55,040 nt of DNA from positions 1 through 55,040 of the IMG/VR virus record IMGVR_UViG_3300030116_000815; one strand, 5' to 3'. This stretch comes from a virus. Its lineage: Duplodnaviria > Caudoviricetes. The first letter of the stretch is position 1, and each line of letters begins with the position of its first letter. Below are positions 36,709 through 55,040 of this stretch, one piece after another. Under the pieces are notes generated by a model. It was given only the letters and a program-made list of their open reading frames with translations. It was not told the origin of the DNA and made no database searches. The translations under genes and the position numbers were made by a program.

Positions 36709-36998
36709 TGGCTAAGAAAAAAGATTCAAGATTAACAAGAGCAGGAGTAAGTGGTTATAATAAACCAAAGCGTACTCCTAATCATCCAAAGAAGTCACAC
36801 ATTGTTGTTGCTAAAGTAGGCGATAAGATTAAGACTATTAGATTTGGACAAAAAGGAGCTAAGACTGCAGGTAAACCAAAAGCTGGTGAGTCTGCAAGAA
36901 TGAAAGCAAAGCGTAAAAGTTTTAAAGCTAGACACGCTAAGAATATTGCCAAAGGAAAAATGTCAGCAGCTTATTGGGCTGATAGAGTAAAATGGTAA
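36708..36998 (+). CDS. Small basic protein (IRFGQ...SFKARH...AAYWA family)
   Basis: TAATG coupling. Confidence 0.75.
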   Translation: MAKKKDSRLTRAGVSGYNKPKRTPNHPKKSHIVVAKVGDKIKTIRFGQKGAKTAGKPKAGESARMKAKRKSFKARHAKNIAKGKMSAAYWADRVKW

Positions 36999-37075
36999 GA
37001 TTATTTAATAAGCTTCATACATTTATGAAGTGTGGTCGTATAAATAAAGTTATACGCATGATAACAAAGGAGTAA
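36992..37075 (+). CDS. Small hypothetical protein (27 aa)
   Basis: Read manually; overlaps upstream stop. Confidence 0.35.
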   Translation: MVRLFNKLHTFMKCGRINKVIRMITKE

Positions 37076-37077
37076 AA

Positions 37078-37182
37078 ATGGATATTATAATTGGAATAGT
37101 AGTTGCTACAGTTGTTGTAGGTGGTATTGTTTATAAATACAAGCCTGAATGGATTGAAGTAATCAAGTCATACTGGAAGTAG
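37078..37182 (+). CDS. Small single-pass membrane protein (34 aa)
   Basis: AAGGAG SD; MDIIIGIVVATVVVGGIVY hydrophobic helix. Confidence 0.6.
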   Translation: MDIIIGIVVATVVVGGIVYKYKPEWIEVIKSYWK

Positions 37183-37188
37183 TCTCTT

Positions 37189-37368
37189 ATGTCATATACA
37201 TTTGGTAGTAACGAAAAGCCTGTATTGATGACCAATAAAAAGAATGGTGGTCGAATAGGTAAAGGTTCAAGACCAAGACCCGGATATTTTAGTCAGCAGT
37301 ACAAAGATAACTATGACAAAATATTTGGTAAGAAAGTTTCCAAAGCCGATAAGGCAGAGGAGGCGTAA
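37189..37368 (+). CDS. Small hypothetical protein (59 aa, GKGSRPRP...NYDKIFG)
   Basis: Read manually; motif typical of small marine phage proteins. Confidence 0.55.
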   Translation: MSYTFGSNEKPVLMTNKKNGGRIGKGSRPRPGYFSQQYKDNYDKIFGKKVSKADKAEEA

Positions 37369-37431
37369 GAGGCTTCTTAGGACAATTCTTCATTCACCTT
37401 AGTCTTAAGAAGCCCAGCTCTAGGAATAAAT

Positions 37432-37683
37432 ATGGAAGTACCAATAACATACATTAGAAGAACTTCATCAACAATACCATTTGGTTATGTAGAATCAGAT
37501 GAGTATGAAGGTTATTTAAAACCTATTGAAGAAGACTTAAGAGTATTAAAAGAAGTATCAGAAGCTGTATTTCATGGAGAAATAAGTTTAGGCATAGGAG
37601 TTGATTGGCTAGAGGCTGAAACAGGAAAGAGGATGTCAAGACCCGGACTTAAAAAATATGTAGATAAAAAGTATGACAGATAA
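37432..37683 (+). CDS. Small HTH DNA-binding protein
   Basis: IPFGY motif, W.L...TG..MS.PGLKK helix-turn-helix; AGGA SD. Confidence 0.65.
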   Translation: MEVPITYIRRTSSTIPFGYVESDEYEGYLKPIEEDLRVLKEVSEAVFHGEISLGIGVDWLEAETGKRMSRPGLKKYVDKKYDR

Positions 37684-39316: not shown

Positions 39317-39318
39317 AC

Positions 39319-41532
39319 ATGGCAGAAGATAATACATTTTTAGATGCGAACAATCTTTACGAAGAAGTAGAAGGTGAAGCTGGAAAACAATTAAAGTTAC
39401 CAGAAGACCAACAGCGTAATCTAATAGGAATTATAAAAGGTAGATATGCCCAAGCAGAAATGGCTAGGGATGCTGATGAAAGAAGGTGGATGAAAGCATA
39501 TGAGAACTTTAGAGGTCTCTATGGTAAGAATGTAAAATTTAGAGAATCAGAAAAGTCTAGAGTATTTGTTAAGATAACTAAAACAAAAGTACTAGCAGCA
39601 TATGGTCAGTTAGTAGATGTTATCTTTGGTACAGGTAAGTTTCCTATAGGTATAGCAGAAACTAAAGTACCAGAAGGTGAAACAGATATAGCACATCTAG
39701 ACATCAATAACCCTACACCAAACATCGAAACATCATTGAACGAGATACCCGATGATATTGGAAATAGAATAGATGACCCATATAATGTAGGTTATGAAGG
39801 CGATGGTAATGTACTAAAGCCCGGAGCTACACACTATAATGGATTGTATGAAGATTCTATTGATATACAAGCAAGAAAAGCTGGTATACTAAAAGATGGT
39901 GTTAGTGCTGACCCACAAGCAATAGAGTTATCTCCTGCACAAAAAGCTGCAAGGAGAATGGAAAAACTTATTCATGACCAAATAGATGAATCAAATGGCT
40001 CTTCTGAAATACGAAATGCTTTATTAGAATCATCTTTATTAGGTACAGGAATTGTTAAAGGACCATTTAACTTCAATAAAAAATTACACAAATGGGATAA
40101 TACTGGTGAAGGTAGAGAATATAATCCATTAGAAGTTAGAGTTCCTAGAATAGAGTTTGTTAGTTGTTGGGATTTTTATCCAGACCCATCTGCTACTAAC
40201 ATGGATGAATGTGAATATGTTTTCCATAGACACAAAATGAATCGTAGTCAACTAAGACAATTACGAAACATGCCTTACTTTGATGAAGATGCTATTCGTG
40301 ATTGTATTCAACTAGGTCCTAACTATGTTGAAAAAGATTATGAATATGGTCTAAGAGATGACAGAAGAGCAGATGTAGAAGAAGGTAATAACTTTGAAGT
40401 TCTAGAATACTGGGGTATAATGGATGCTCAATATGCTAGAGAGGTTGGAGTTAAACTTCCTAAAAAGATTGATGACTTAGATGAAGTCCAAGTAAATATT
40501 TGGATATGTGGTGACAGAATATTAAGAGCTGTAGTAAATCCATTTACACCTTATAGAATACCATATCATGCTTTCCCATATGAAAGAAATCCATATAGTT
40601 TCTTTGGTATTGGTATAGCAGAAAATATGGATGACAGTCAGCAAATTATGAATGGACATGCAAGAATGGCTATTGATAATTTGGCAATGTCAGGCTCTTT
40701 AGTATTTGATGTTGATGAATCTGCTTTAGTAGGTGGTCAGTCAATGGAAATATATCCGGGCAAAGTATTTAGAAGACAAGCAGGAATGCCCGGACAAGCA
40801 ATACATGGTTTAAAATTCCCAAATACATCACAAGAAAACTTGATGATGTTTGACAAGTTTAGACAACTTGCAGATGAACAAACAGGTTTACCTAGTTACT
40901 CACATGGTCAAACTGGAGTTCAAAGTATGACAAGGACTGCTTCTGGTATGTCTATGTTACTTGGAGCATCTAGTTTAAATATAAAAACTGTTGTCAAAAA
41001 CCTTGATGACTTTTTATTAAAACCATTAGGTGAATCTTATTTTCAATGGAACATGCAATTCCATGAAGGTGAGTTAGATGTAGATGGTGATTTAGAAGTT
41101 AAGGCTACTGGTACAAATAGCTTGATGCAAAAAGAAGTACGAAGTCAAAGATTGACTATGTTCTTACAAACTGCACAAAGTCCAGCTATCGCACCATTTG
41201 TTAAGATTTCTAAACTTGTAAGTGAACTAGCCTACAGCTTAGACTTGGACCCTGATGAAATACTCAATGACCCAGAAGAAGCTGCAATAATGGCTCAAAT
41301 AATAGGAATGCAAAATGCTAGACAAGAAAATGGCGAGGAAGCTCAACCCCTTGGTCAACAACAGGGAGCAATGGGAAGTATGGCAGGAACACCTGAACAA
41401 CCTCAAGACCTTGGCGTTACAGGAACTGGTGGTGGCAACATCGGAATCGGAAATGTACCGGTCGCAGGGGAAAGTTCGTTTAGTGGGAATGTTGGAATCC
41501 CTGCCGGAGCAGGTGAAAGAGGCATTGAATAG
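39319..41532 (+). CDS. Portal protein
   Basis: 737 aa after terL; LGTGIVKGP, DFYPDPSA, FFGIGIAENM.D.Q..MNG..RMAIDN, TASGMSML. Confidence 0.9.
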   Translation: MAEDNTFLDANNLYEEVEGEAGKQLKLPEDQQRNLIGIIKGRYAQAEMARDADERRWMKAYENFRGLYGKNVKFRESEKSRVFVKITKTKVLAAYGQLVDVIFGTGKFPIGIAETKVPEGETDIAHLDINNPTPNIETSLNEIPDDIGNRIDDPYNVGYEGDGNVLKPGATHYNGLYEDSIDIQARKAGILKDGVSADPQAIELSPAQKAARRMEKLIHDQIDESNGSSEIRNALLESSLLGTGIVKGPFNFNKKLHKWDNTGEGREYNPLEVRVPRIEFVSCWDFYPDPSATNMDECEYVFHRHKMNRSQLRQLRNMPYFDEDAIRDCIQLGPNYVEKDYEYGLRDDRRADVEEGNNFEVLEYWGIMDAQYAREVGVKLPKKIDDLDEVQVNIWICGDRILRAVVNPFTPYRIPYHAFPYERNPYSFFGIGIAENMDDSQQIMNGHARMAIDNLAMSGSLVFDVDESALVGGQSMEIYPGKVFRRQAGMPGQAIHGLKFPNTSQENLMMFDKFRQLADEQTGLPSYSHGQTGVQSMTRTASGMSMLLGASSLNIKTVVKNLDDFLLKPLGESYFQWNMQFHEGELDVDGDLEVKATGTNSLMQKEVRSQRLTMFLQTAQSPAIAPFVKISKLVSELAYSLDLDPDEILNDPEEAAIMAQIIGMQNARQENGEEAQPLGQQQGAMGSMAGTPEQPQDLGVTGTGGGNIGIGNVPVAGESSFSGNVGIPAGAGERGIE

Positions 41533-41542
41533 GAGAGATTAA
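41315..41542 (+). CDS. Small head-associated protein overprinted on portal 3' end
   Basis: AGGA SD; helical sequence with MYRSQG motif; its TAA overlaps the next ATG. Confidence 0.65.
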   Translation: MLDKKMARKLNPLVNNREQWEVWQEHLNNLKTLALQELVVATSESEMYRSQGKVRLVGMLESLPEQVKEALNRRD

Positions 41543-42255
41543 TGGAGTACATGGAAGAATTACATAAGAGATTAGGTATGAAAGATGGAGGAGAGTTTCC
41601 TGATTTAAACAAAGATGGAAAAACTTCATACGCTGATGTTCTTATAGGTAGAGGCGTAAGATTAAAGAAACAAGAAGGTGGTTCAATGGATGACCAAATG
41701 AAAGACATGATGGGAGAACAACCTGATATGGATATGGTTCCAGATGAACAGATGGAAGATAACTATATGAATTTTATAATCCAAGAAGCATTAAGTGAAG
41801 AAGAAGAAGATGTTCTCTTGGAAAAATTACAACAAGACAAAGAGCTACTACGACTATTTGATAAAGTAGTTGATGTAGCACAAGAATTTGCTGGGTCTGG
41901 TCCTGTAGAAGGTCCGGGTTCAGGAATCTCCGACAGTATACCTGCAAGGTTATCTGATGGAGAATTTGTTTTCACAGCAAAAGCAACGGAAGTATTAGGC
42001 TCTGATAATTTACAGGCTATGATGGAAGATGCTGAAAGAGTTGCTGATGAAGGCAGAAAACCTATGAACGATGGTGGTACCATGCAAGAGGAAGATAGTC
42101 AAGAACAAGCTGTAAAGCAAGTTGAACAAACTATCAATGTAAATAGACCTCAAGTACAAGAAGAATCAGGACCGAGGATTATGCCTCAAAATGATTTAGT
42201 AAAAGAGGAACTATCTAAAATGGCTCTTGCTGATATAGACCATGTTCGTAGCTAA
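41542..42255 (+). CDS. Head morphogenesis protein with GPG..SDSIPARLSDGEFV domain (candidate protease)
   Basis: AGGAG SD; between portal and scaffold; also FPDLNKDGK EF-hand-like loop. Confidence 0.6.
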   Translation: MEYMEELHKRLGMKDGGEFPDLNKDGKTSYADVLIGRGVRLKKQEGGSMDDQMKDMMGEQPDMDMVPDEQMEDNYMNFIIQEALSEEEEDVLLEKLQQDKELLRLFDKVVDVAQEFAGSGPVEGPGSGISDSIPARLSDGEFVFTAKATEVLGSDNLQAMMEDAERVADEGRKPMNDGGTMQEEDSQEQAVKQVEQTINVNRPQVQEESGPRIMPQNDLVKEELSKMALADIDHVRS

Positions 42256-42257
42256 GC

Positions 42258-42372
42258 GTAGAGCTACCCTATTAGCGTAGGCACTCTACAAATTAAAACC
42301 GAAAGGCGACCTTTACAACAAGCCCTATAGTGCACATATAGCTACCTTGTGAACGAAGCCCTGATTAGGAGG
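42258..42372 (+). promoter_or_regulatory. Structured scaffold-gene leader: three hairpins with a repeated asymmetric internal loop
   Basis: G-CNAC-C ... G-CM-C repeated three times just before the AGGAGG SD. Confidence 0.6.
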
Positions 42373-42380
42373 ATAAGAAT

Positions 42381-43250
42381 ATGACTGAACAAGTCCAAAC
42401 AGAGGATAAGCCAAATCCTTATAACGCTAAAAAAGATTGGCACGAGAAAGATAAACCTTTTTCATCATCAGAGAATCTTTATTTTGAAGAGCCTTCTGAA
42501 AAAAACAAACTGTTTACTACTTCGGATATAACTGAAGCAGAAGACAATGTTAATACAGAAGAACTGGAAACTACAAAGGATAAACCTTATGGTAAGCCAG
42601 ACTACAAAAAAAGATATGATGATTTAAAAAGACATTATGATAGAAAACTTAATGAGTTCAAAGCCAGAGAACAAGAGTTGCAAACTCAAGTGGTAACACC
42701 AGAGTATAAAACTCCAAAAACTGAAGAAGAACTAAATAAATTTAAGGAACAATATCCTGATGTTTACGAAGTTGTAGAAACTGTAGCACATCTACAAAGT
42801 GATGCTAAAGCAAAAGTTCTAGAAGAACGCCTTAGTAAATTGCAAGAAAGAGAGATGCAGATTTCTAGAGCAGAAGCAGAAAAAAGGTTAATGGAAAGAC
42901 ATCCTGACTTTAATGAAATTAGAGACAATGATGATTTTCATAACTGGGCAAACAACCAGCCAGAGTCTATCAAATCATGGATATACTCAAATGCTGATGA
43001 TGCTGATTTAGCTTCTCGTGCATTAGATTTATTTAAGCGAGATATGGGGATTAGTTTACCACAAGAGGATAAGTCATCTTCTACGACCGAATCTGCTGCA
43101 GATATGGTATCAACTAAAACAACAACAGTTGAACCAAAGCAGGAGAAAGTTTGGTCAGAAAAGGAGATTGCTGCTATGAGTGTTGCAGAGTTTGATAAGT
43201 ACGAAGAGGAAATATCAAATGCAATGCAAGAAGGCAGAATCGTAAAGTAA
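42381..43250 (+). CDS. Capsid scaffolding protein
   Basis: YKKRYDDLKRH coiled coil, HPDF, C-terminal EI..MS..EF....EI..A..EGRI; precedes MCP. Confidence 0.85.
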   Translation: MTEQVQTEDKPNPYNAKKDWHEKDKPFSSSENLYFEEPSEKNKLFTTSDITEAEDNVNTEELETTKDKPYGKPDYKKRYDDLKRHYDRKLNEFKAREQELQTQVVTPEYKTPKTEEELNKFKEQYPDVYEVVETVAHLQSDAKAKVLEERLSKLQEREMQISRAEAEKRLMERHPDFNEIRDNDDFHNWANNQPESIKSWIYSNADDADLASRALDLFKRDMGISLPQEDKSSSTTESAADMVSTKTTTVEPKQEKVWSEKEIAAMSVAEFDKYEEEISNAMQEGRIVK

Positions 43251-43274
43251 ACTATTTAATAAAGGAGAAGTATC

Positions 43275-44249
43275 ATGGCTCAATATTTTGAACCAAGTAC
43301 CGATACTAATGCTAACTTTGCTAACTCCGTTAGTGGACAGGCTAATAGTTTCTTCCTACCTTCCGTTTATTCTAAAAAGGTTTTAAACTTCTTTAGGAAA
43401 GCCTCGGTAGCAGAAGCTATTACTAACACCGATTATACTGGTGAAATATCTGCTTTCGGAGATTCAGTAAAGATTATTAAAGAACCAGTTATCTCTGTGT
43501 CTGATTACACAAGAGGTAGCGATACTTCACAAACAATGCTAACAGACCAAGAATTAACTCTTGTTGTTGATAGTGCTAAAGCTTTCAAATTCATCGTAGA
43601 TGATATTGAAACTAACATGTCACATGTTAACTTCAAAGAAGTTGCTTCTTCAAGTGCTGCATATGCTCTTAAAGATTCATATGATGCTGCTGTTATTGCT
43701 AAAATGTTTGCTGGATTATCAGCTAGTTCACCTGACCACATCATAGGTTCAGATAGTGCAACTGCAGATGCTACAATGGCACACGCAACTAACTCTGTCG
43801 ACTTATTAGGTTCAGATGGAACTGGTGTAGACCCATTAGATTTAATGGCTAGAATGGCTAGAAAACTAGATGAGCAAAATGTTCCTGAAGAAGGAAGATG
43901 GTTCCTTGCTGGACCAGATTTCTATGAGCAACTTGGTCAATCAGGTTCTAAGTTATTGTCTGTTGATTTCAATGCTGGTCAAGGTTCAATAAGAAATGGA
44001 TTAGTATCAAGTGGAAAACTAAGAGGATTTGATATGTACAAATCTAACAACATTGCTGCTACATCAAATGCAAGTGGTAAAGTGTTAGCTGGACATATGA
44101 GTTCAACTGCAACTGCAAATACTATTCTTTCAACAGAAGTGTTGAGAGACCCAACATCGTTTGGTGATATAGTAAGAGGTCTTCATGTTTATGGCTGTAA
44201 AGTCTTAAGAGAAGAAGCTCTAGTAGGTGCATTCTATGTTATCGACTAA
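43275..44249 (+). CDS. Major capsid protein
   Basis: FLPSVYSKKVL, NTDYTGEI...GDSVKI, VP.EGRW, FGDIVRGLHVYG; AAGGAG SD; followed by a terminator. Confidence 0.92.
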   Translation: MAQYFEPSTDTNANFANSVSGQANSFFLPSVYSKKVLNFFRKASVAEAITNTDYTGEISAFGDSVKIIKEPVISVSDYTRGSDTSQTMLTDQELTLVVDSAKAFKFIVDDIETNMSHVNFKEVASSSAAYALKDSYDAAVIAKMFAGLSASSPDHIIGSDSATADATMAHATNSVDLLGSDGTGVDPLDLMARMARKLDEQNVPEEGRWFLAGPDFYEQLGQSGSKLLSVDFNAGQGSIRNGLVSSGKLRGFDMYKSNNIAATSNASGKVLAGHMSSTATANTILSTEVLRDPTSFGDIVRGLHVYGCKVLREEALVGAFYVID

Positions 44250-44258
44250 TAACAATTC

Positions 44259-44288
44259 GGGGGAGTCGTAAGGCTCCTCCACTTTTTT
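44259..44288 (+). terminator. Intrinsic terminator after MCP
   Basis: GGGGAGTC-GTAA-GGCTCCTC stem-loop then T6. Confidence 0.85.
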
Positions 44289-44301
44289 AGGAAAAAAAAT
44301 T

Positions 44302-44442
44302 ATGTATGGAAAAAGAAAAGGAATGAAACATGGAGGAACACATCGTAAGCCTATGGGTGGTGGTGGTTATTCCATGAAGAAAAATAAAAGAAAAATGTAT
44401 AAGCATGGTGGAAAAGCCATGGAAACAGCAAAACCTTGTTAG
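44302..44442 (+). CDS. Small basic protein (46 aa) with three R-x-x-[MY]-x-x-G-G repeats
   Basis: Read manually: MYGKRKGMKHGGTHRKPMGGGGYSMKKNKRKMYKHGGKAMETAKPC. Confidence 0.65.
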   Translation: MYGKRKGMKHGGTHRKPMGGGGYSMKKNKRKMYKHGGKAMETAKPC

Positions 44443-44450
44443 GAGTTTAA

Positions 44451-45218
44451 ATGGCTACAACATATTTAGATTTAAGTAATGAGATATTAAGGGAGTTAAA
44501 TGAAATTCCTTTAACATCAGCTAACTTTGGTGCAGCATTAGGATTACAACAATTTGTAAAAGATGCTATAAATAAAGCTATATTTGATATTGCTAATGAA
44601 GAACCACAGTTACCATTCTTTAGTGCTGGAGTAAGTGGAGGTACAGACCCTTTTTATGGTAATGTAACTGTAGCTACTGTAGCAGGACAAAGATGGTATA
44701 CTTTAAAATCTAGTAGTTCTAGCATAACAACAGATTACTCCTCTGTTGATTGGGATGATTTTTATTTAACAACAATAAATGTAAGTGGCGAATCAGCTCC
44801 ATATGTTTCTAAAGGATTAAAATTTTTAACATTAGCTGATTGGAAACAGTATAGAAGAGATAATGAAAACGCTGATGATGCAGATACTCAAAATTATGGA
44901 GAGCCACAGTATGTTATTAAAAGTCCAGACCATAGAAAGTTTGGACTAAGTCCTATACCAGACAAAGTTTACAATGTGCATTTTTATGCATTTGATAAGC
45001 CAACTAAATTAGATGCTCATGGAGATACAATAGTATTACCAGAACAATATAGTAATGTTATAACTTCAAGAGTAAGATATTATGTATGGCAATTTAAAGA
45101 AAGCCCACAACAGGCTGCGTTTGCGTTAGAAGATTACAAAAAAGCTATGAGGCATATGAAATCAAATCTATTAAATCCACAGCCTAAATATATGACAGAT
45201 GACAGGACATACTTTTAA
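44451..45218 (+). CDS. Head-tail adaptor / tail tubular protein A-like
   Basis: TYLDL.NE.LRELNE N-terminus, L.PIPDK.Y, D...LPEQY; position after MCP. Confidence 0.75.
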   Translation: MATTYLDLSNEILRELNEIPLTSANFGAALGLQQFVKDAINKAIFDIANEEPQLPFFSAGVSGGTDPFYGNVTVATVAGQRWYTLKSSSSSITTDYSSVDWDDFYLTTINVSGESAPYVSKGLKFLTLADWKQYRRDNENADDADTQNYGEPQYVIKSPDHRKFGLSPIPDKVYNVHFYAFDKPTKLDAHGDTIVLPEQYSNVITSRVRYYVWQFKESPQQAAFALEDYKKAMRHMKSNLLNPQPKYMTDDRTYF

Positions 45219-46825
45219 TGGCAACAGCTCAACCATATACAGTAGCTTGTGAAGGTGGATTAGTAACAGCATCTAATCAAATAGATTTATTACGAAGTCC
45301 GGGTTCAGCAATAGAGTTACAAAACTTTGAAATATCTGTAGAAGGTGGATATAGAAGAATAAATGGATTTACAAAGTATGGTGGCAATAGTGCTGTACAA
45401 CCTACAGGAGGTGCTGCAACTATACAAGGTATAATGCCTTATGCTGATGGAGTTATAGTTTGTGCTGGAACTAGTATATATTTTAGTAATGATGGAGTAA
45501 ATTGGTTAGAAGTAAATAGAAGTTCAGTAGCAAGTAGTGGAGATAATCATACTGCATTTACTGGCAGAAGTGTTTTAACTAGAACAAATCAAGGACAAGT
45601 ACAGTTTGCATTATTTGAAGGTCCTAACTATCAATATGGACAATTAATTATATCAGATGCAAATAATAAACCTTATAGTTTTAGAATGGAAGGTTCTGGA
45701 GCAATAGCATCTAGAACATTTTTTTCAGAAGAAATAACTGTAAGTGGAACTAAAGGTGTACAGTTTATTACTCATCATGATAGACACTTAATAGCTGCAG
45801 GTGTAGAAGATAATTTAAGTACAGTATATTATAGTGCTTTGTTAGACCCAACAGATTTTAGTGGCTCTGGTTCAGGTGCAATTACATTAACAGACCAGAT
45901 TGTAGGAGTTGCACCATTTAGAACAGACTTATTTATATTTTGTAAGAATAGTATTCATAAACTTGTAAATATAAATAATTCTAGTACAGTAGCAGTAGTA
46001 CCGGTTGCTGAAAGTGTTGGATGTTTAAGTGGATATAGTATTCAAGAGATTGCTGGTGACTTGGTATTTTTAGCACCAGATGGTATAAGAACAATTGCTG
46101 GTACAGCGAGAATCGGAGATGTTGAGTTAGGAACTGTTAGTAATAAGATACAACCTATTATAACAACACTAGCAAAAAATATAGATTTATATCAAATATC
46201 TAGTGTAGTTATTAGAGAAAAATCTCAATATAGATTATACTATACAAACTTAGGTGCATCTGCAAATGCACAAAGAGGTATTATAGGAACACTAAGACCA
46301 AATGGATTTGAGTGGTCTGAAACAAAAGGATTAGAAGTTACAGCAGTAGGTGCTGACTTTGATGCTACAGAAGTAGAAAGATATTATCATGGTTCTAAAG
46401 ATGGTTATATTTATAATCATGATACAGGAAACTCTTTTGATGGCACAGCTATTATAGCAAGATATAAAACACCAGACTATGATTATGGTGATTTAGGAAC
46501 ATTAAAAACTTTACATTATTGTAAGATTTCTATTGGAGCAGAAGGAGTTGTAACTCCAGAACTACAAGTAAAGTTTGATTATTCAAATACAGAGATACCA
46601 CAGCACACTAATAATTTTAGTTTAGGTACTGTAAATCCATCTGCTGTATTTGGAGAAGCAGTATTTGGGTTCAATGTTTTTGGTGCAACATCAAACCCAA
46701 TGATTAGAATACCATTACAGGGTAGTGGTACAAGTAACAGTTTTACAATTTTAAGTAGCGATACAAAAGCACCTTATAAAATAAATGGATTGTATGTTGA
46801 TTACATACCATCTGGCAGGAGATAA
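45218..46825 (+). CDS. Tail nozzle / tubular protein B-like
   Basis: [16 protein letters not shown]; beta-propeller-like composition; FLAPDG.R. Confidence 0.75.
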
Positions 46826-46827
46826 AA

Positions 46828-49800
46828 ATGGCAGGATATACAAGACAAAGTTCGTTTAGTGATGGAGACAGCATAACTGCTGCTTTGTTTAATGATGAAT
46901 TTAACCAATTAGTAAATGCATTTCATGCAAGTACTGGACATACCCATGATGGTACTACAGCAGCTAATGGTGCTCCTATATCAGTATTGTACAGTAATAC
47001 AGTAACAATAGGTAAGAATGAAAATACTGATATAGCTATTACATTTAATGGAGCAACAACTGATGGTGTATTAACATGGATGGAAGATGAAGACTACTTT
47101 AAGTTTTCTGATGACATATTAGTAGATAGTACAGAAAAACTACAGTTTAGAGATACAGCAATATATATTAACTCTAGTACTGATGGGCAACTAGATATAG
47201 TAGCTGATACAGAAATACAATTAGCTGCAACTACAATAGATATAAATGGTGCAGTAGATATTTCAGGAGCTTTAACATTAGCTGGTACTTCATTAGCAGA
47301 AACTATTTCTGATACTGTAGGAGCTATGGTAAGTTCTAATACAGAAACAGGAGTTACAGTTACTTATGATGATAGTGATAATACATTAGACTTTGTAATC
47401 GGAACATTAAACCAAGATACTACAGGAAACGCTGCAACTGCCACAGCATTAGAAACTGCTAGAACTATTCATGGTGTAAGTTTTGATGGTACTGCTAATA
47501 TTGATTTATCAGAAGTTATTCAAGATACTGTAGGAGCTATGCTATCTAGTAATACTGAATCAGGTGTTACAGTTACATATCAAGATGCAGATGGAACTAT
47601 AGACTTTACTGTAGCTTCACAAACTGATGAAAACTTTACAACTGCTGACCATGCTAAATTAGATGGCATAGAAGCAAATGCAACAGCCGACCAGACTGCA
47701 GCAGAAATTAGAACATTAGTAGATAGTGCTAGTGATTCAAATGTATTTACAGATGCAGACCACACAAAACTAGATGGTATAGAAGCTAATGCAACAGCCG
47801 ACCAAACAGATGAAGAAATACAAGATATAGTAGGTGGAATGCTTACTGGTAATACTGAAACAGGTATTACTGTTACATATCAAGATGCAGATGGAACTGT
47901 AGATTTTGTTGTAGCATCTCAAACAGATGAAAACTTTACAACAGCAGACCACGCTAAATTAGATGGTATAGAAGCTAATGCGACTGCAGACCAAACAGAT
48001 GCTGAAATTAAAACTGCATATGAAAACAATTCAAACACAAATGCATTTACAGATACTTTATTAAGTAAACTAAATGCAATAGAAGCTGGAGCTACTGCAG
48101 ACCAAACAGCAGAAGAAATACAAGACATAGTAGGAGCTATGGTATCTTCTAATACTGAATCAGGTATTACAGTTACATATGAAGATAGTGATGGTACTCT
48201 TGATTTTGCAGTTGGTACATTAAACCAAGACACAACAGGTAATGCAGCTACAGCTACAGCATTAGCAACTGCAAGAACAATACATGGTGTATCTTTTGAT
48301 GGTACAGCAAATATAGATTTAACAGAAGTAGTACAAGATACTGTTGGAGCTATGTTCTCAAGTAATACTGAAACAGGTATTACAGTAACATATGATGATT
48401 CTGATGGTACTATTGATTTAGTAGTAGGAACTCTTAATCAAGATACTACAGGTAATGCAGCAACTGCAACAGCTTTAGAAACTGCAAGAACAATTAATGG
48501 TGTAAGTTTTGATGGTACTGCAAATGTTACAACACTTACTGCAGGTACAGGAGTATCTGTATCAGGTACAGAAGTATCTATAGGACAATCAGTAGCAACA
48601 AATGCAGATGTAGATTTTGCTACAGTTACTACTACAGGTAATGCAATTATTGGAGGAGACCTAACTGTAAGTGGAAATACAACTACTCTTAATACTGCAA
48701 CTTTAGATGTTGAAGATAAAAACATAACAATTAACAAAGGTTCAGGAGATACATCAGGTTCAGCAGATGGTGCTGGTATTACTATACAAGATGCAGTAGA
48801 TGCTTCAACAGATGCAACAATGTCATGGAGTGCTGCAAATGATAACTTTGTATTTTCACATGAAATAGCTGCTCCAAGTTTAGATATATCAGGAAATGTA
48901 GATGTTGATGGAACATTAGAAACAGATGCTTTAACTATAAATGGTACAGCATCAGTTCCTTTTGAATCTGCAGACCATACTAAATTAGATGGTATTGAAG
49001 CAAATGCTACTGCAGACCAAACAGCAGCAGAGATTAGAACACTAGTAGAATCAGCAAGTGACTCTAATGTATTTACTGATGCAGACCATACTAAACTAAA
49101 TGCTATAGAAGCTAGTGCTGATGTTACAGATGCTGCAAATGTAGGAAGTTCATTAACAGCATTTCCTACAGGTACAGATGCTGCAAGTTCAGACTTAGTT
49201 CCATATTATGATGTAACTGCAGGAGCATGGGAAAAATCTACAGTAACTAATTTAGCTTTACAAGGACCTACAGGACCTACAGGACCGACTGGTTCTACAG
49301 GACCTACAGGACCTACTGGACCAACTGGACCTACAGGACCTACAGGTTCTAAAGGACAAAAAGGTGAAGTAGGTGGAACAGGACCTACAGGTTCAACTGG
49401 ACCTACTGGACCTACTGGACCAAGTGGTTCTGCTGGGCAGAAAGGACAAAAAGGTGAAGTAGGTGGAACAGGACCTACAGGACCTACAGGACCTAGTGGT
49501 GCTGGTTCAGATGGTAGTAAAGGACAAAAAGGTGAGCCGGGTAATACTGGAGGAACAGGACCTACAGGTTCGACAGGACCAACTGGTAGTACTGGGCAAA
49601 AAGGACAAAAGGGTGAGGTAGGTAATACTGGACCCACAGGTAGTACTGGACCTACTGGACCATCAGGCTCTAATGGTTCTAATGGTAGTAAAGGACAAAA
49701 AGGTGAACCGGGTTCAACAGGACCAGCAGGACCTACAGGTAGCACAGGACCTACTGGTGGTACAGGACCTACTGGTGGCACAGGACCTACTGGGCAGAAA

Positions 49801-50907
49801 GGACAAAAAGGTGAGGTCGGTAATACAGGTCCTACAGGACCATCAGGACCAGCAGGTTCAGATGGAGATGATGGTAGTGCTGGACCTACAGGACCAACTG
49901 GACCTACAGGTAGCACAGGACCTACAGGTCAAAAAGGACAAAAAGGTCAAACAGGCTCCACAGGTGGCACAGGACCTACAGGACCTACTGGACCTACAGG
50001 ACCTTCTGGTTCAAATGGCTCTAATGGTTCTAAAGGACAAAAAGGTGAACCGGGTTCTACAGGTGGAACAGGACCTACAGGACCTGCAGGACCAACAGGT
50101 AGTACAGGACCTACAGGACCTACTGGAACTGGTCAAAAAGGACAAAAGGGTGAAGTTGGTGGTACAGGACCTACAGGACCTACAGGTGGTACAGGACCTA
50201 CAGGTGGTACAGGACCTACAGGACCAGCAGGACCTACAGGACCAACAGGTACTGGTCAGAAAGGACAAAAAGGACAAAAAGGACAAACAGGTGCTACAGG
50301 TGGCACAGGTGGTACAGGACCTACAGGTGGTGCAGGACCAGCAGGACCTCCGGGACCAGCAGGACCTCCGGGTTCAGCAGGTTCAGATGGTTCAAATGGT
50401 GGACCGGGACCAGCAGGACCTCCGGGACCTCCGGGTTCAGATGGTGGTTTTACAACCAACTCAAATGCACAAGTAAATAGTTTAGGTGCAGGTACTGCAG
50501 GTAGTGGTACAGCAGGTGAGATTAGAGCAACTAATAACATTACTGCTTACTATTCTGATGCTAGACTAAAAGACTTTGAAGGTACTATACCTAATGCATT
50601 GGCTAGAGTAAATAAACTACATGGTTATTACTTTAGAGAAAATCCAACTGCAAAAGAATTAGGTTATGAAAATGATAAACTACAAGTAGGTGTAAGTGCA
50701 CAGGAAGTACAAGAAGTATTACCAGAAGTAGTTACAGAAGCACCTATTGATGATAAATATTTAACAGTATGGTATGATAAATTAGTACCATTATTGATTG
50801 AAGCTATAAAAGAATTATCACAAGATTCACATCCTCCAAAATGTTTAGAAGACATGGAAGGATATGATGAGATTATTGAAAGAATAGAAGCTTTGGAGGA
50901 TAAATAA
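46828..50907 (+). CDS. Tail fibre with modular repeats, collagen triple-helix region and C-terminal S74 intramolecular chaperone
   Basis: N-terminal GH.HDGT anchor; repeats; about 390 aa of G-X-Y; SDARLK...GVSAQEV..VLPEVV...[15 protein letters not shown]. Confidence 0.9.
47311..49125 (+). repeat. Intragenic modular repeats in tail fibre
   Basis: Recurring [48 protein letters not shown] and [17 protein letters not shown] blocks. Confidence 0.85.
49264..50451 (+). repeat. Collagen-like G-X-Y repeat region (ggacctaca-type 9-bp repeats)
   Basis: GPT runs punctuated by ten G(S/Q)KGQKG blocks. Confidence 0.95.
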
Positions 50908-51611
50908 TGGCATTACCTAGTAGTGGTGCATTAAGTTTTGCAAACTTACAATCAGAGTTTGGTGGCTCTCATCCTATAACTATGGGTGAGTATGCTGCTT
51001 ATAGACAGTCTGGTTCTGGAAATACTATTGATATGGCTGATTTTTATGGAGCATTTTTATTTAATACTTCAAGTGATATAACATCAGGTTATGTATATGC
51101 TATTGTTCCGGGACCTAGAGGTGGTACTAGATATAGATTTAGTTCAGGATTTAATTCTCGTTCTTTTAGTTCTTTTGGTAATACTTATTCTGCTCCTTCT
51201 GGGTCAGCAAGTCCATCAACTAATATGGGAACATCTGGTGGACTTATAGGAACTGGTGGTACTTTAAGTAATGTAAGTCATGACATTACCAGTCTTTTAG
51301 GTGGTAACTCACTTATATTACAATCAAGTGGACCTAATAGTAATAGTGGTTTTACCAGTATGGAAGTAGCTGGTCATCAAACTACTAAAAGTTTTGCTAG
51401 AACAAGTGCTAATTATACTTATACTAGTGGTAAAGCTACATGGGAATGGTTAATAAGTGCAGCCGATTCAACTTACTTAAATGGTAATGTTTTTTCAAAT
51501 TCACATAGTTCTAAACTATTCGGATTACAAAGTCCTACTTATGGTTATGGTACTTCGGGAAGTAATGTTGGTACAGTAAGTAGTAGTGAAGCAACAATAA
51601 CTTTCTCATAA
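50907..51611 (+). CDS. Putative fibre-tip / receptor-binding protein
   Basis: [24 protein letters not shown]-terminus typical of fibre-associated adhesins; Ser/Gly/Thr-rich. Confidence 0.65.
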   Translation: MALPSSGALSFANLQSEFGGSHPITMGEYAAYRQSGSGNTIDMADFYGAFLFNTSSDITSGYVYAIVPGPRGGTRYRFSSGFNSRSFSSFGNTYSAPSGSASPSTNMGTSGGLIGTGGTLSNVSHDITSLLGGNSLILQSSGPNSNSGFTSMEVAGHQTTKSFARTSANYTYTSGKATWEWLISAADSTYLNGNVFSNSHSSKLFGLQSPTYGYGTSGSNVGTVSSSEATITFS

Positions 51612-51805
51612 TGGCAACTATATCATATACAATAAAAACAGATGTAATGGATGACACAGTTAAATGGGCATCTTTTACTCATGATGGTGTATACTACGAA
51701 ATAAGAGCAACATTAGATTCTAATGGTGATGTAGATGATACTAAAACACAAGAAGATTGTCAAGACTATATTGAGTTAAAACAAGATGAGGCAGAAACAG
51801 TATGA
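51611..51805 (+). CDS. Small acidic hypothetical protein
   Basis: TAATG and ATGA coupling. Confidence 0.6.
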   Translation: MATISYTIKTDVMDDTVKWASFTHDGVYYEIRATLDSNGDVDDTKTQEDCQDYIELKQDEAETV

Positions 51806-52611
51806 CAATACCTAAGTCAGGACCAGTAATAAGAACTTTTGATTATGCGTTAGATGAACCTAGAACTATGGCATATCATGATTGGATAGCTGCTAATGTT
51901 AATGGTAAAGTAGTTTGTGAATTAGGAGCAGGTTCTGGTATACTAACTTACTTGTGTGTAAAATACGGAGCTACAAAAGTATACTGTTATGAAAATAACA
52001 AACGAGTAATTAATTGGTTAAAAAGATTTTTTGCAAGTGAGACTAAAGTAGAAGTTGTAGAAGAAGATATTACAACAGCAACTTTTCCTACAGCAGATAT
52101 ATATTTACATGAAAATATTGGTTCAAATGTTTACATGGAAAATATATTAGGTATGTATACTAATTTAAAATCACAAGGTTTAGAAGATAAAACTTATCCT
52201 AATAAAATTAAAATACAATATGGAACTTATACTGGTGAATCACAACTTCACAGATATAACAAGTCTTCAACATATATAGCTGATACTTTTACTAATGCAA
52301 ATGTGTTATCTTTTTTTAATGCATGTCCAATGGTAGATAAAATATTACCTTGGACTTGGTATAATTTAACACACGACCAATCAGCTATAACTTTTAATGG
52401 TACACTATATGATGGAGATTTAAAAGATTTAACAAGGTATACTGATTCAGATGCAAATAGTCAGTACATATTTTGGGAAGTTAGTTTTGATGGTAGCTAT
52501 CCTATATCTAATTGGAAGTTTAGAAATCATTGGAATATAATAAAAGCTGCTGATGAATGTATGCCTATAATGGATAGTAGTGTAATGACATATACTGTTA
52601 AAGAAGTTTAA
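51802..52611 (+). CDS. PRMT-like SAM-dependent methyltransferase
   Basis: D.PRT.AY, VVCELGAGSGIL, GA.KVY.YE, double-E loop HENIGSNVYME, C-terminal NHW. Confidence 0.75.
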   Translation: MTIPKSGPVIRTFDYALDEPRTMAYHDWIAANVNGKVVCELGAGSGILTYLCVKYGATKVYCYENNKRVINWLKRFFASETKVEVVEEDITTATFPTADIYLHENIGSNVYMENILGMYTNLKSQGLEDKTYPNKIKIQYGTYTGESQLHRYNKSSTYIADTFTNANVLSFFNACPMVDKILPWTWYNLTHDQSAITFNGTLYDGDLKDLTRYTDSDANSQYIFWEVSFDGSYPISNWKFRNHWNIIKAADECMPIMDSSVMTYTVKEV

Positions 52612-52612
52612 T

Positions 52613-52641
52613 TTGACAAATGTTGTAAAAAACTGTATAAT
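52613..52641 (+). promoter_or_regulatory. Consensus sigma70 promoter for the glycosyltransferase/hydroxylase gene
   Basis: TTGACA-N17-TATAAT. Confidence 0.85.
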
Positions 52642-52658
52642 ACTATTACAGGTGAATC

Positions 52659-54494
52659 ATGAAAAAAATAGTAATCAGTTTAAAAAGAAGACAAGATAGA
52701 AAGAAATTATTTAAAAATAATAATTTAAAAGATTATAAATATTTAGAAGCTATAGATTATAAAACTTTAGATTCTAAAGATATTATAATTGATGAAGAGT
52801 TTAGAGACCCTTTTAAAAATAGACAAGTTTTAAAAAGTGAGGTAGCTTGTTTTTTATCCCATAGAAAAGCATGGGAAGAGTGTCATAGATTATATGAACC
52901 TGTAATTATATTAGAAGATGATGCAGTTATAAATGACACATGGGATGAAGAATATTACGAAGAGCTTATAAAAAAGTATGAGTTTGTTTACTTACAAAGA
53001 AATGAAAACGAACCACTTTTTGTTACACCGATAGATGGAAGAATAGAAAAACCATCTTATCCGTACAATTTAACAGCTTATGTAATAGACCCCATAACAG
53101 CTATGAAGTTAATGCATAACTATAATAAAATAATACCAGTTGATGAATATATTCCTCGACTTATTAAAAGAAATAAATTAGATGCAGTAGCTTTAAAACA
53201 AGATGCTTGTAATCAGTTACCAAGAAATATAAGTGAGAGTGACATCGAAAATAACACAATAGCACGAAACTTTACTGTACATCCAATTACAGTAGGTTCA
53301 GACAGATTAAAGTGCGTTAAGTTAAATACAAGTGCTAGAAAGCATGGTATAGAAGTAAAGAACTTAGGTACTAATGTAGAATGGAAAGGAACAGATATGT
53401 CTGGTCCGGGTGGTGGAATGAAAGCCAACCTATTAAGAGATTATGTAAATACTCTACCAGACAAAGATGTAGTTTTATTTACAGATGCATATGATGTTTT
53501 TTATGCAGATGATTTAGAAACTATAACTGAAAGGTATTTAGATTTTAATACTAAAGCAGTTTTTTCAGCAGAGCTATATTGCTATCCTGATTCTAGTATA
53601 GCAGATGAGTTTCCAGAATCTCATACACCTTATAGGTATTTGAATAGTGGAACATTTATAGCTCAAGTAGGAGAACTAAAAAAAATGTTTGCTTCTTCTA
53701 CTGTAGCTGATGATGGTGATGACCAACTGTATTATCAGAAGTTATTACTAAGTAATGAGTTTGATATGACTTTAGATTATGAAGGTTATATTTTTCAAAC
53801 ACATGAAGATGCAACAGGTATAAGTAGTTCAGGACAACTTTATAATCCTAGAACAGATTGCTGTGCATGTATTTATCATGGTAATGGTGGAGATAACACC
53901 AAAGAAAAATTTAATGCTTTGTATGATGTGTTTCATCCTAAGGCTGATTATTATTTTAGTCCTAGTAAATCATATGATATTATAGAAAATGATATGCTAG
54001 TAGTTGACTTTATGACACAAGAACAATGTGAAAGATTAATAGAGTTAGCTGATAATCATGGAAACTGGGATAGTTTAAAATATGACAAGTTTCCAGCACA
54101 AGAAATAAGACTAAAAGAATTAGGATTGTGGGCTGAATTAGAAACTAAATGGAATGAGTTTATTGTTCCTATAGTAGAAAAGTATTGGCAACCTACACAA
54201 ATGTATGGACTAAGAGATGCTTTTGTAATGAAATATAATTTAGAAACACAAAAAGATTTACCTTTACATACTGATGCAAGTTTAGTAACAGGAAGTGTAA
54301 AGTTAAATGATGATTATGAAGGAGCTGATTTATTTTATCCTAGACAAAATATCAGCAACAAAGATATACCAGTAGGTAAAATGATTTTATTTCCGGGTAC
54401 AGTAACACATGGACATGAGTGCTTACCATTAACAAAAGGAACTAAATATAGTTTTACCATATGGACAAACAGATTTCCCGGAGATAGTATATAA
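52659..54494 (+). CDS. Fusion: GT25 glycosyltransferase + PLOD-type glycosyltransferase + 2OG-Fe(II) lysyl-hydroxylase-like domain
   Basis: GT25: VISLKRRQDR, EVACFLSH..AW, ILEDD, PVDEYI. PLOD-GT: GGGMK, LFTDAYD, FSAE..CYP, YLNSG.FI, DDQLYY, IFQ, HGNG. Hydroxylase: FVMKY...Q..L.LHTDAS, FPG.VTH.HE.LP...GTKY. Confidence 0.88.
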   Translation: MKKIVISLKRRQDRKKLFKNNNLKDYKYLEAIDYKTLDSKDIIIDEEFRDPFKNRQVLKSEVACFLSHRKAWEECHRLYEPVIILEDDAVINDTWDEEYYEELIKKYEFVYLQRNENEPLFVTPIDGRIEKPSYPYNLTAYVIDPITAMKLMHNYNKIIPVDEYIPRLIKRNKLDAVALKQDACNQLPRNISESDIENNTIARNFTVHPITVGSDRLKCVKLNTSARKHGIEVKNLGTNVEWKGTDMSGPGGGMKANLLRDYVNTLPDKDVVLFTDAYDVFYADDLETITERYLDFNTKAVFSAELYCYPDSSIADEFPESHTPYRYLNSGTFIAQVGELKKMFASSTVADDGDDQLYYQKLLLSNEFDMTLDYEGYIFQTHEDATGISSSGQLYNPRTDCCACIYHGNGGDNTKEKFNALYDVFHPKADYYFSPSKSYDIIENDMLVVDFMTQEQCERLIELADNHGNWDSLKYDKFPAQEIRLKELGLWAELETKWNEFIVPIVEKYWQPTQMYGLRDAFVMKYNLETQKDLPLHTDASLVTGSVKLNDDYEGADLFYPRQNISNKDIPVGKMILFPGTVTHGHECLPLTKGTKYSFTIWTNRFPGDSI

Positions 54495-54736
54495 TGGAAA
54501 TATCAACATATTTAATTTGGAATGTTATTATAACTTTGGTACTAGCACCATTGTTATTTTCTATTCGTAAAAATGAGGCAGAGGCTAAAAGAATAGATAT
54601 ACTATTAAATAAAACTAGAGAAGAAATAGCTAGAGAATATGTTACTAAACAAGAAGTAAAAGAAGATATGACTGCTCTAATGGAAAGGCTAGAAAAACTA
54701 CATGAAAAAGTAGATAAACTTTTTGAGGTTAAATAA
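54494..54736 (+). CDS. Small membrane-anchored coiled-coil protein
   Basis: N-terminal TM helix, ILLNKTREE.A..YVTK, L..K.D.L. Confidence 0.65.
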   Translation: MEISTYLIWNVIITLVLAPLLFSIRKNEAEAKRIDILLNKTREEIAREYVTKQEVKEDMTALMERLEKLHEKVDKLFEVK

Positions 54737-55040
54737 TGGCAAAACGAAAAAGAAAAAATAAATATAAGTCAAAAAACAAAAGAGATAGATTAAATATGGA
54801 TAAGGGTGGAGTAGTAAGAAATCCTTACAATAGAGGTTCATTAGCTGTTAATCCTTTACAACCCTTAGAACGAAAAGCTAAGGCAGATGACCCTTCATCG
54901 GCATATAGTTCACCTCCTGATTATAGAGTTATGGATAATGCTGTTAGTCAAGGAGTTACTGTTCAAGATAGAGGAACAGGAGTGGGTGAAATGGGTAATT
55001 TTGGTCCGGGAAGTTTTCCGGGTAACCCTAGTAGGTATAT
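54736..55040 (+). CDS. 5' part of the internal virion protein that continues at window start
   Basis: TAATG coupling, GAGG SD, open to the window end (MAKRKRKNKYK...), in frame with 3..2702. Confidence 0.7.
   Translation, partial: MAKRKRKNKYKSKNKRDRLNMDKGGVVRNPYNRGSLAVNPLQPLERKAKADDPSSAYSSPPDYRVMDNAVSQGVTVQDRGTGVGEMGNFGPGSFPGNPSRY
54941..55040. repeat. Terminal direct repeat, right copy
   Basis: Matches 1-100 except at the second-to-last base. Confidence 0.9.

Follow-up and report, generated by a model that had tools for sequence, protein, structure and literature searches.

A predicted three-domain collagen-lysine-modifying enzyme encoded beside a collagen-like tail fibre in a marine podophage

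Introduction

Does a bacteriophage hydroxylate and glycosylate the collagen lysines of its own tail fibre? The question is raised by IMG/VR record IMGVR_UViG_3300030116_000815, a 55,040-base virus genome (analysed over its full length and called the window here), in which a tail-fibre gene with a long collagen-like region is followed on the same strand by the gene for a 611-amino-acid (aa) protein related to the animal enzymes that modify collagen lysine. Hydroxylysine (Hyl)-linked glycosylation of collagen is so far known from animals and from mimivirus enzymes. Our search of the full-text literature turned up no phage report of hydroxylated lysine or of glycosylated Hyl, supplements, which might list such genes, lying outside that search; PMC13382579 makes no mention of phage, bacteria or mimivirus, and PMC12220804 has lysyl hydroxylase in its reference list only. 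A model that had seen the letters of this stretch without database searches (the sequence-only reading) proposed that one phage polypeptide carries out a self-contained, three-step pathway on the fibre. The analysis reported here leads us to think it probable that the fibre lysines are hydroxylated and glycosylated by the phage's own enzyme.

Results

The collagen lysines of the fibre

The fibre open reading frame (ORF) matched Pfam Collagen (E 1.1e-40) and, at its C-terminus, Peptidase_S74 (E 1.3e-11). Its collagen part, aa 813-1208, has 130 Gly-X-Y triplets, which fall into four runs (27, 69, 13 and 21). All 21 lysines of this part stand in the context X-Lys-Gly; 19 of them lie in unbroken register, and K1104 and K1145 occupy the Y position of a register that is reset after a one-residue break. 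The region holds exactly ten G[SQ]KGQKG blocks, the last of which is a triple, [10 protein letters not shown]. The residue count thus bore out what the sequence-only reading had claimed, ten G(S/Q)K-GQK-G blocks with every Lys at Y. Thr occupies 69 of the 130 Y positions and Pro 56 X positions, and Arg does not occur in the collagen part.

Successive blocks are 26-45 residues apart (mean 33.7), which, with the generally known rise per residue of a triple helix, corresponds to ~7-13 nm along a helix of ~113 nm. The pattern is quasi-periodic, not strictly periodic; of the periodic glycosylation that had been predicted, the repeated blocks stood and the regular spacing did not.

The Peptidase_S74 domain opens at S1243 with the Ser-Lys dyad motif SDARLK, so the protein combines the two features of a phage collagen fibre, long Gly-X-Y repeats (130 triplets) and a C-terminal Peptidase_S74 domain with its dyad. 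Self-cleavage after trimerisation, which we take to be the role of this family, is probably its role here; the collagen rod, with 34 further residues, would then be the distal end of the fibre. Long DNA repeats, their periods 300 and 213 bases, make up the N-terminal two thirds (47521-48525, + strand); they encode repeated units, 'TVGAM..SNTE.G.TVTY.D.DGT.DF' and '[18 protein letters not shown]', that partly match WYL_2.

A fusion of two glycosyltransferases and a lysyl-hydroxylase-like domain

The enzyme matched Glyco_transf_25 (PF01755; aa 2-164, 70 bits, cut-off 24, E 3.2e-19) and GT_PLOD (PF25342; aa 210-421, 160.8 bits, cut-off 27, E 4.5e-47), and it matched phrog_61 over its full length (4.3e-111). 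When the PDB was searched with phmmer, the middle part of the protein found the glycosyltransferase (GT) domain of LH3 (1.6e-22, enzyme aa 224-411), the C-terminal part found the lysyl hydroxylase (LH) domains of human LH3 (2.2e-8, aa 450-600) and of mimivirus L230 (1.5e-9, aa 425-601), and the N-terminal part found the catalytic GT25 domain of COLGALT1 (~1e-10, aa 5-172). Mimivirus R699 and R655 were matched too, and PiuC gave a weaker match (1.3e-3). It is because of the matches to the LH domains of LH3 and L230 that we read the C-terminal domain as a hydroxylase.

Structure comparison agreed. An AlphaFold (AF2) model built from 16 homologues (pLDDT 86.2, pTM 0.81) was matched by Foldseek to full-length LH3 (E 3.6e-27), to the LH3 GT domain 6wfv (TM 0.85, root-mean-square deviation 2.3 Å), to the L230 LH domain (TM 0.74, E 4.8e-12) and to COLGALT1 (E 1.1e-11), with R699 also among the best matches. 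Prolyl hydroxylases followed at ~5e-7, ranked below LH3, R699, L230 and COLGALT1; by sequence and by structure the oxygenase fold is closest to LH domains over other hydroxylases. The comparisons with PLOD3 (LH3) and COLGALT1 that had been suggested thus gave matches to both, and the proposed fusion of GT25, PLOD-type GT and lysyl-hydroxylase-like domains held up in Pfam, phmmer and structure matches and in the conserved residues described below.

The enzyme gene also has the consensus promoter of its own that had been ascribed to it. TTGACA-17-TATAAT at 52613-52641 scores 12/12 and is followed by AGGTGA and an ATG at 52659; it is the sole 12/12 sigma-70 site in 46000-55040, and it was kept at 12/12 in 3 and at 11/12 in 4 of the 61 related loci scored.

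Names in databases suggest another substrate. Homologues of the enzyme are called lipopolysaccharide (LPS) glycosyltransferase or 2-oxoglutarate (2OG) oxygenase, and both the JGI name 'GR25 family glycosyltransferase involved in LPS biosynthesis' and the title of the Pfam family would suit an enzyme that acts on envelope glycans of the host, for example to block superinfection, and lies beside the fibre gene incidentally. O-chain modification has been proposed for pelagimyophage GTs, in an excerpt of PMC7029224 that does not treat the window enzyme. However, no NCBIfam LPS model matched the enzyme at E ≤ 0.01, and by sequence the only solved structures to match the GT25 domain were two collagen enzymes, COLGALT1 and R655. 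The first annotations of mimivirus L230 and R655 had also made them LPS enzymes (PMC9546862, in excerpt). Action on LPS would also leave unexplained both the LH-like fusion and the two-way link with KGQKG collagens across three virion morphotypes that is described below, and we regard it as very unlikely.

Conservation of the catalytic residues

Aligned with LH3, the phage enzyme has D276/Y278/D279 at the positions of D112/Y114/D115, E305 at E141, Y309 at W145, D354/D355 at D190/D191 and H407/N409 at H253/N255, and the Fe(II) ligands H667/D669/H719 correspond to H537/D539/H586. The EDD (E435-D437) and DE (D522-E523) motifs of COLGALT1 align with E86-D87-D88 and D162-E163. In COLGALT1, EDD is the metal motif, DE the catalytic base and YW the acceptor clamp, and the W495A change kills the enzyme (PMC12987934, in excerpt). 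In R699, residues K62, E114, W118, D162/D163, H216 and N218, together with a DxxD Mn site and a poly-Asp helix, bind UDP-glucose and the acceptor sugar, and the residues of the phage PLOD-type GT domain are those so described (PMC12279948, in excerpt).

Conservation was scored in two alignments, one of 16 metagenomic homologues (56-81% identity) and one with CRP-6 and cyanophage proteins. Invariant in both were E86, D88, D162, K255, D276, D279, E305, D354, D355, H407, N409, H537, D539, H586 and K596. D87 was invariant among the 16 metagenomic homologues and is Glu in CRP-6; the position of Y309, Tyr in the window enzyme, is Trp in most relatives.

Collagens with lysine at Y upstream of the enzyme

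Scanned with the enzyme profile, IMG/VR gave 253 relatives, and 80 loci were kept. Control loci were collected without regard to composition, by a pattern of twelve GGN codons spaced 9 bases apart; of 80 listed loci, 79 had a collagen-like ORF, 71 control records were searchable with the enzyme profile, and 70 control loci with collagen were used for triplet counts. A collagen ORF lay upstream of the enzyme on the same strand in all 34 loci with at least 6 kb of upstream sequence, ending -4 to 3261 bp before the enzyme, and the 28 enzyme loci without collagen all have at most 3356 bp upstream.

The two sets differ in where lysine stands. The 52 enzyme loci with collagen contained 0 Lys at X and 2740 at Y in 9852 triplets, as against 87 at X and 163 at Y in the 4072 triplets of the 70 control loci (Mann-Whitney p = 7e-18 for the Lys-at-Y fraction). 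KGQKG was present in 52/52 enzyme loci with collagen and in 0/71 control loci. Conversely, a multi-domain enzyme match was found in none of the 71 control records, which yielded one GT25-only ORF and two small generic 2OG ORFs. The GT25-only ORF, of 252 aa, belongs to one control record (L201, G013:C1:21796-22359, and L095); the collagen on that contig is GAT/GPT-rich and poor in Lys, its 131 triplets having Lys 7 times at Y and 3 times at X; a GT25 without a hydroxylase may there serve another acceptor.

Collapsed at 80% enzyme identity, the enzyme loci formed 21 clusters with collagen. Every cluster had 14-39% Lys at Y, no Lys at X and no Arg, and Pro was limited to 0-2 residues at Y. Triplets between the blocks differ widely (GPT/GST in some, GSN/GSD/GAD in others), and the block itself, G-[SDAQ]-K-G-Q-K-G-[EQT], is constant.

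These counts bear on the many threonines of the fibre, which the sequence-only reading had named as alternative acceptors. Threonine glycosylation has precedents in Bacillus anthracis BclA and in worm cuticle collagen, and the GT domains could act on the Y-position Thr of GPT repeats while the hydroxylase domain has another role or none; the Thr at 69/130 Y positions of the window fibre would fit this, as would the change of the GT25 acceptor clamp from YW to YN. In the enzyme-linked collagens, though, Thr at Y ranged from 8 to 61% and did not track the enzyme, whereas Lys at Y was constant, and T-rich collagens were common among controls without the enzyme. An invariant Fe triad and an invariant basic 2OG residue would be unexpected of an idle LH domain, and LH and GT25 stay together even when they are split or differently fused. 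Threonine is therefore an improbable target, and modification of lysine by the enzyme remains our preferred reading.

From the KGQKG motif back to the enzyme

The reverse scan looked for two back-translated KGQKG motifs 61-91 bases apart; of 80 listed loci, 78 records were searched, and 43 of them encoded the enzyme or its domains. The proportion rose to 11/12 among records at least 40% complete and to 3/3 among those at least 90% complete. The sole miss among the twelve, G090, is 58% complete, and its collagen ORF reaches the end of the stored stretch. Among controls at least 40% complete, 0/34 had a multi-domain match and one had a weak 2OG-only match. None of the 35 negative records exceeds 58% completeness; 21 of them are whole contigs with at most 3354 bp past the last collagen ORF, too little to hold the enzyme. 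Another negative, L248, has 5.4 kb downstream of collagen in a record that is 15% complete, and might be a genuine exception. The co-occurrence with Lys-containing collagens that the sequence-only reading had proposed as a check was accordingly found in both directions, 34/34 loci forward and 11/12 in reverse against 0/34 controls.

The domains were not always arranged as in the window. Some phages of the reverse set encode GT25 and LH in one ORF of 739-773 aa without a GT_PLOD match, and in one 96%-complete record GT25 (276 aa) and LH (213 aa) are two adjacent ORFs; these forms accompany KGQKG collagens in G072, G083, G123, G138 and G121. Of the best 150 LH-domain representatives, 39 had GT25, GT_PLOD and LH, 16 had GT_PLOD and LH, 2 had GT25 and LH, and 93 showed the LH domain only. 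The hydroxylase is thus the constant element, and the sugar transferases are modular. Small 2OG ORFs of 198-202 aa lie among the KGQKG collagen genes of G081, G085 and G106. One enzyme homologue, G114:C1:3964-5658, has a TAA stop inside the match and may be a broken copy or a sequencing error.

Such modularity raises the possibility of a partial pathway, in which the phage enzyme carries out hydroxylation alone or adds one sugar, one GT domain being structural, like the N-terminal domain of COLGALT1, or having another donor or acceptor. The relatives without GT_PLOD (the 739-773-aa ORFs) and those without GT25 (16/150 representatives) would be in keeping with this, as would the differing GT25 acceptor clamp of the window enzyme, and mimivirus L230 puts glucose straight on Hyl (PMC9546862, in excerpt). 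Against it, the residues that bind metal, act as base or bind sugar do not vary within this family in either GT domain, and we consider a partial pathway unlikely.

The same pairing in cultured phages

In a phage collection of 50,697 records, the enzyme was matched in 11: nine cyanomyophage records, one Kyanoviridae fragment and the Roseobacter siphophage CRP-6; a protein collection yielded 778 homologues at E ≤ 1e-10. A KGQKG collagen fibre lies just upstream of the enzyme in CRP-6, S-PRM1, S-CAM9 and S-8S56. Lys stands at Y in 26/99, 23/59, 22/59 and 24/55 triplets of these fibres, respectively, and at X in none; Pro occurs at Y 0-1 times in the CRP-6 and cyanophage collagens. The non-collagen parts of the four fibres are unlike the window fibre, and the enzyme-fibre pairing spans podo-, sipho- and myoviruses. 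In the enzyme-less cultured relatives HTVC115P, HTVC104P, HTVC033P and HMO-2011, the equivalent tail region contained no collagen, a few short Gly-rich runs being all that was seen there.

The cyanophage and CRP-6 proteins of phrog_61 ('2OG-Fe(II) oxygenase'), among them S-PRM1 gp162, S-CAM9 gp218 and CRP-6 gp58, are full-length homologues of the window enzyme, 39-50% identical, with the same three domains and the same place downstream of a KGQKG fibre gene. They differ in belonging to other virion types and are annotated as hypothetical protein or as 2OG-Fe(II) oxygenase only. In the cyanophages, two small 2OG-Fe(II) oxygenase genes are inserted between the KGQKG fibre and the enzyme (S-PRM1, L002 8839-10004; S-CAM9 and S-8S56, L208 10839-12004 and L209 1787-2967) and the YW clamp is kept; CRP-6 has YN, and its GT25 N-terminus is shortened. 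Downstream of the tail genes of Pelagibacter phage HTVC033P (L206 18009-20123) lie two genes for 2OG-Fe(II) oxygenases and one for a 'putative ferrochelatase'.

Observations that weigh against lysine modification

Several observations count against the reading that the enzyme modifies fibre lysines by the animal route. On the side of the enzyme, the match to 2OG-FeII_Oxy_3 (aa 534-603) scored 20.2 bits, under the cut-off of 27. LH3 R729, the 2OG-binding Arg ten residues past the distal His, aligns with K596 in GTKY, as the sequence-only reading had cautioned, so that Lys replaces the Arg of LH1-3 and L230. The acceptor clamp Y494-W495 of COLGALT1 aligns with Y136-N137. Two domains of the animal enzymes are absent: the alignment covers COLGALT1 residues ~318-505, with the phage GT25 domain starting from residue 2, and thus lacks the N-terminal non-catalytic GT domain; and the phage GT domain ends at ~aa 421 and the LH domain begins at ~aa 425-450, which leaves no room for the accessory Rossmann domain of LH3. 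Given the altered clamp, the Lys anchor and the absent accessory domains, we treat the phage domains as relatives, not proven orthologues, of the animal enzymes, and on its sequence the N-terminal domain is classed as GT25-like, not as a proven COLGALT orthologue.

The Lys anchor has parallels. Among the best 150 of 1317 LH-domain representatives, position 596 was K in 108 and R in 34, and both residues were seen in three-domain proteins, four of which have R. In view of this interchange the Lys-for-Arg change may be benign, the basic character being retained. Collagen prolyl 4-hydroxylases have Lys at the 2OG-binding position as well, and prolyl hydroxylases were among the weaker Foldseek matches; the oxygenase could on these grounds be a prolyl hydroxylase, or act on a substrate other than the fibre, with Lys at Y serving only to stabilise the triple helix. 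The best sequence and structure matches of the domain are nevertheless LH domains, and helix stabilisation by itself does not account for the absence of Lys from X in 9852 triplets or of KGQKG from 71 controls. Pro at Y amounts to 0-2 residues in the 21 clusters and 0-1 in the CRP-6 and cyanophage collagens, and we rejected a prolyl-hydroxylase identity because Pro at Y is nearly absent from the linked collagens. As a whole this alternative is extremely unlikely.

On the side of the linkage, triple helices also gain stability from Lys at Y when Gly-Glu comes next, and in 13/70 control loci Lys takes up 10% or more of the Y positions although the enzyme is lacking. Taken by itself, then, Lys at Y is not diagnostic; the diagnostic signs are the exact KGQKG motif and the absence of Lys from X. 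The controls came from many habitats and not from AT-rich marine phages alone. Finally, the enzyme loci are mutually related, and fibre and enzyme may travel as one cassette, so the 52 loci do not amount to 52 independent events.

Discussion

A model for fibre modification

We propose that the 611-aa enzyme, made in the cytoplasm from its own strong promoter, would modify the fibre ahead of triple-helix formation in the collagen part. First, the C-terminal 2OG/Fe(II) domain would hydroxylate the Y-position Lys of the G-x-K-G-Q-K-G blocks on unfolded chains to hydroxylysine. The N-terminal GT25 domain, predicted to be inverting and Mn-dependent with an Asp base, would then put a first hexose (galactose, by analogy) on the new hydroxyl, and the middle PLOD-type GT domain, predicted to be retaining, would add a second (glucose, by analogy). 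The C-terminal S74 chaperone would nucleate trimerisation and then be cleaved off. The mature fibre would end in a ~113-nm collagen rod with rings of up to six modified Lys every ~10 nm.

In its full form, this model holds that the three-step animal-type route (Lys to Hyl to hexosyl-Hyl to dihexosyl-Hyl) operates on both Lys of every KGQKG block and that KGQKG is a modification code shared by marine podo-, sipho- and myophages. That is plausible but, taken whole, somewhat doubtful. For the claim that one polypeptide performs all three steps, the conserved domains and residues speak in favour, and the sugar identities and the order of the steps follow the animal enzymes by analogy. The word 'self-contained' fits the three domains in one polypeptide and otherwise overstates the case, as the host supplies UDP-sugars, Fe2+, 2-oxoglutarate and O2. 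What has been demonstrated, at the level of sequence, is that the domains are homologous, that their catalytic residues are conserved and that enzyme and KGQKG collagens are linked in genomes in both directions; from these findings and from analogy we infer the substrate, the step order and the sugars, and the glycans may serve helix stability, protease protection or host contact. Hyl-containing L71 has been produced by co-expression with L230 in E. coli, in which the mimivirus collagen enzymes work; such enzymes can thus work in a bacterial cytoplasm (PMC9546862, in excerpt).

Relation to known systems

The nearest counterpart is the human pair of LH3/PLOD3 and GLT25D1/COLGALT1 (complex 8ZGC; LH3 6FXK and 6FXR; COLGALT1 9EVJ). 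The likeness lies in three predicted activities from homologous domains, in an X-Lys-Gly target with Lys at Y, and in the retention by the phage of the LH3 GT residues D112/Y114/D115, E141, D190/D191 and H253/N255, of the Fe ligands and of the EDD and DE motifs. Where the human complex joins proteins of ~720 and ~620 aa, the phage has a single 611-aa polypeptide in the order GT25-GT-LH. It lacks the LH3 accessory and COLGALT1 N-terminal domains, and R729 has become Lys, W145 Tyr and W495 Asn. The human enzymes act in the endoplasmic reticulum, whereas the phage enzyme would be bacterial-cytoplasmic, with a virion fibre as its proposed substrate.

Mimivirus likewise encodes collagen-like proteins such as L71 together with homologues of all three domains: L230 (LH and Hyl glucosyltransferase), R699 (Gal-Hyl glucosyltransferase) and R655 (GT25-like), besides the prolyl hydroxylase L593. 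The L230 LH domain, R699 and R655 match the phage enzyme. The mimivirus genes are separate and belong to a giant amoeba virus, whereas in the phage three fused domains are encoded in a 55-kb bacteriophage genome beside the presumed substrate gene. Unlike mimivirus, the phage has a fixed, acceptor-like KGQKG motif, and no prolyl hydroxylase partner comparable with L593 was found in the window, its other 2OG oxygenase being PiuC-like. BclA of Bacillus anthracis is a further glycosylated collagen-like filament; it is GXT-rich, with Thr-linked glycans, unrelated enzymes and no lysine hydroxylation.

The present case contributes a podophage in which GT25, GT_PLOD and LH are fused, the signature KGQKG, and a test of association run in both directions. 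The carriers include relatives of SAR11, Roseobacter and Synechococcus phages, so that some of the commonest viruses in the ocean would bear the modification on the organelles with which they recognise hosts. If the full model is right, six disaccharides would ring a 113-nm rod every ~10 nm, the rod being the end by which the fibre contacts the host, and collagen-type lysine glycosylation would be a widespread chemistry of prokaryotic viruses. KGQKG is a concrete candidate acceptor motif, and CRP-6, S-PRM1 and S-CAM9 are cultured carriers. A compact, bacterially expressible three-step enzyme could also help to make glycosylated recombinant collagen, as a one-gene tool; this product has not yet been possible in bacterial systems (PMC9546862, in excerpt).

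The window and its neighbouring genes

The 55,040-base record is rated complete. Its capsid protein is closest to that of Pelagibacter phage HTVC115P (59.7% identical) and is kin to those of HMO-2011-type podophages of SAR11, SAR116 and Roseobacter, and the 535-aa tail protein points by similarity to the same relatives. A megablast search of 36000-46800 against the phage collection returned no match, nothing in it being close at the DNA level, and the phage type was assigned by protein similarity because the DNA search was empty. On this basis we class the window as a ~55-kb HMO-2011-type marine podophage. The genes run in the order capsid, SU10-adaptor-like protein, 535-aa tail protein, fibre, three small or accessory ORFs, enzyme and 80-aa ORF (Table 1).

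Table 1. Positions of the fibre, the enzyme and further features in the window
Feature	Position	Strand	Remarks
Tail-fibre gene, 1359 aa	46828..50907	+	N-terminal repeat domains, distal collagen-like region, C-terminal S74 intramolecular chaperone; many PHROG tail-fibre families matched
Collagen-like region, aa 813-1208, proposed substrate	49264..50451	+	130 GXY triplets, ten G(S/Q)KGQKG blocks
Peptidase_S74 chaperone domain, aa 1243-1302	50554..50733	+	Pfam PF13884; SDARLK at S1243
234-aa Ser/Gly/Thr-rich ORF between fibre and enzyme	50907..51611	+	No constant partner; present in 9/82 loci
64-aa ORF	51611..51805	+	Present in 3/82 loci
269-aa class I S-adenosylmethionine methyltransferase, PRMT-like, accessory	51802..52611	+	Present in 3/82 loci
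Consensus sigma-70-type promoter TTGACA-17-TATAAT, then AGGTGA ribosome-binding site	52613..52641	+	
Three-domain collagen-lysine-modifying enzyme (predicted), 611 aa	52659..54494	+	Profile, sequence and structure matches
GT25 (COLGALT-like) domain, aa 2-164	52662..53150	+	EDD metal motif E86-D88, DE base D162-E163
PLOD-type GT (glucosyltransferase-like) domain, aa 210-421	53286..53921	+	K255, D276/D279, E305, Y309, D354/D355, H407/N409; TM 0.85 to 6wfv
Lysyl-hydroxylase-like 2OG/Fe(II) oxygenase domain, aa 425-611	53931..54491	+	H537, D539, H586, K596
80-aa ORF, hydrophobic N-terminus, directly 3' of enzyme	54494-54736	+	PHROGs without assigned function; kept in 19/82 loci
Second 2OG-Fe(II) oxygenase, 193 aa, PiuC/PKHD-type by PDB	22326-22907	-	PF13640 at 59-60 bits

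Two further genes were considered as members of the pathway and rejected. The second 2OG-Fe(II) oxygenase, PiuC/PKHD-like, lies among ribonucleotide reductase genes, two of which follow it downstream on its strand, and one 264-aa ORF lies beyond its other side; nothing was found that connects it with the fibre. The methyltransferase was set aside as accessory, since it occurs in only 3/82 loci. Its best solved relatives are protein arginine methyltransferases (PRMT6, E 3.8e-6), with a double-E loop aligned, and the fibre collagen is without Arg; weak Erm/KsgA/PrmA-type matches in Pfam and NCBIfam fell far under their cut-offs. The 234-aa ORF, for which Pfam, PHROG and NCBIfam gave no match, begins on the last base of the fibre stop codon and may be a fibre tip or an assembly factor.

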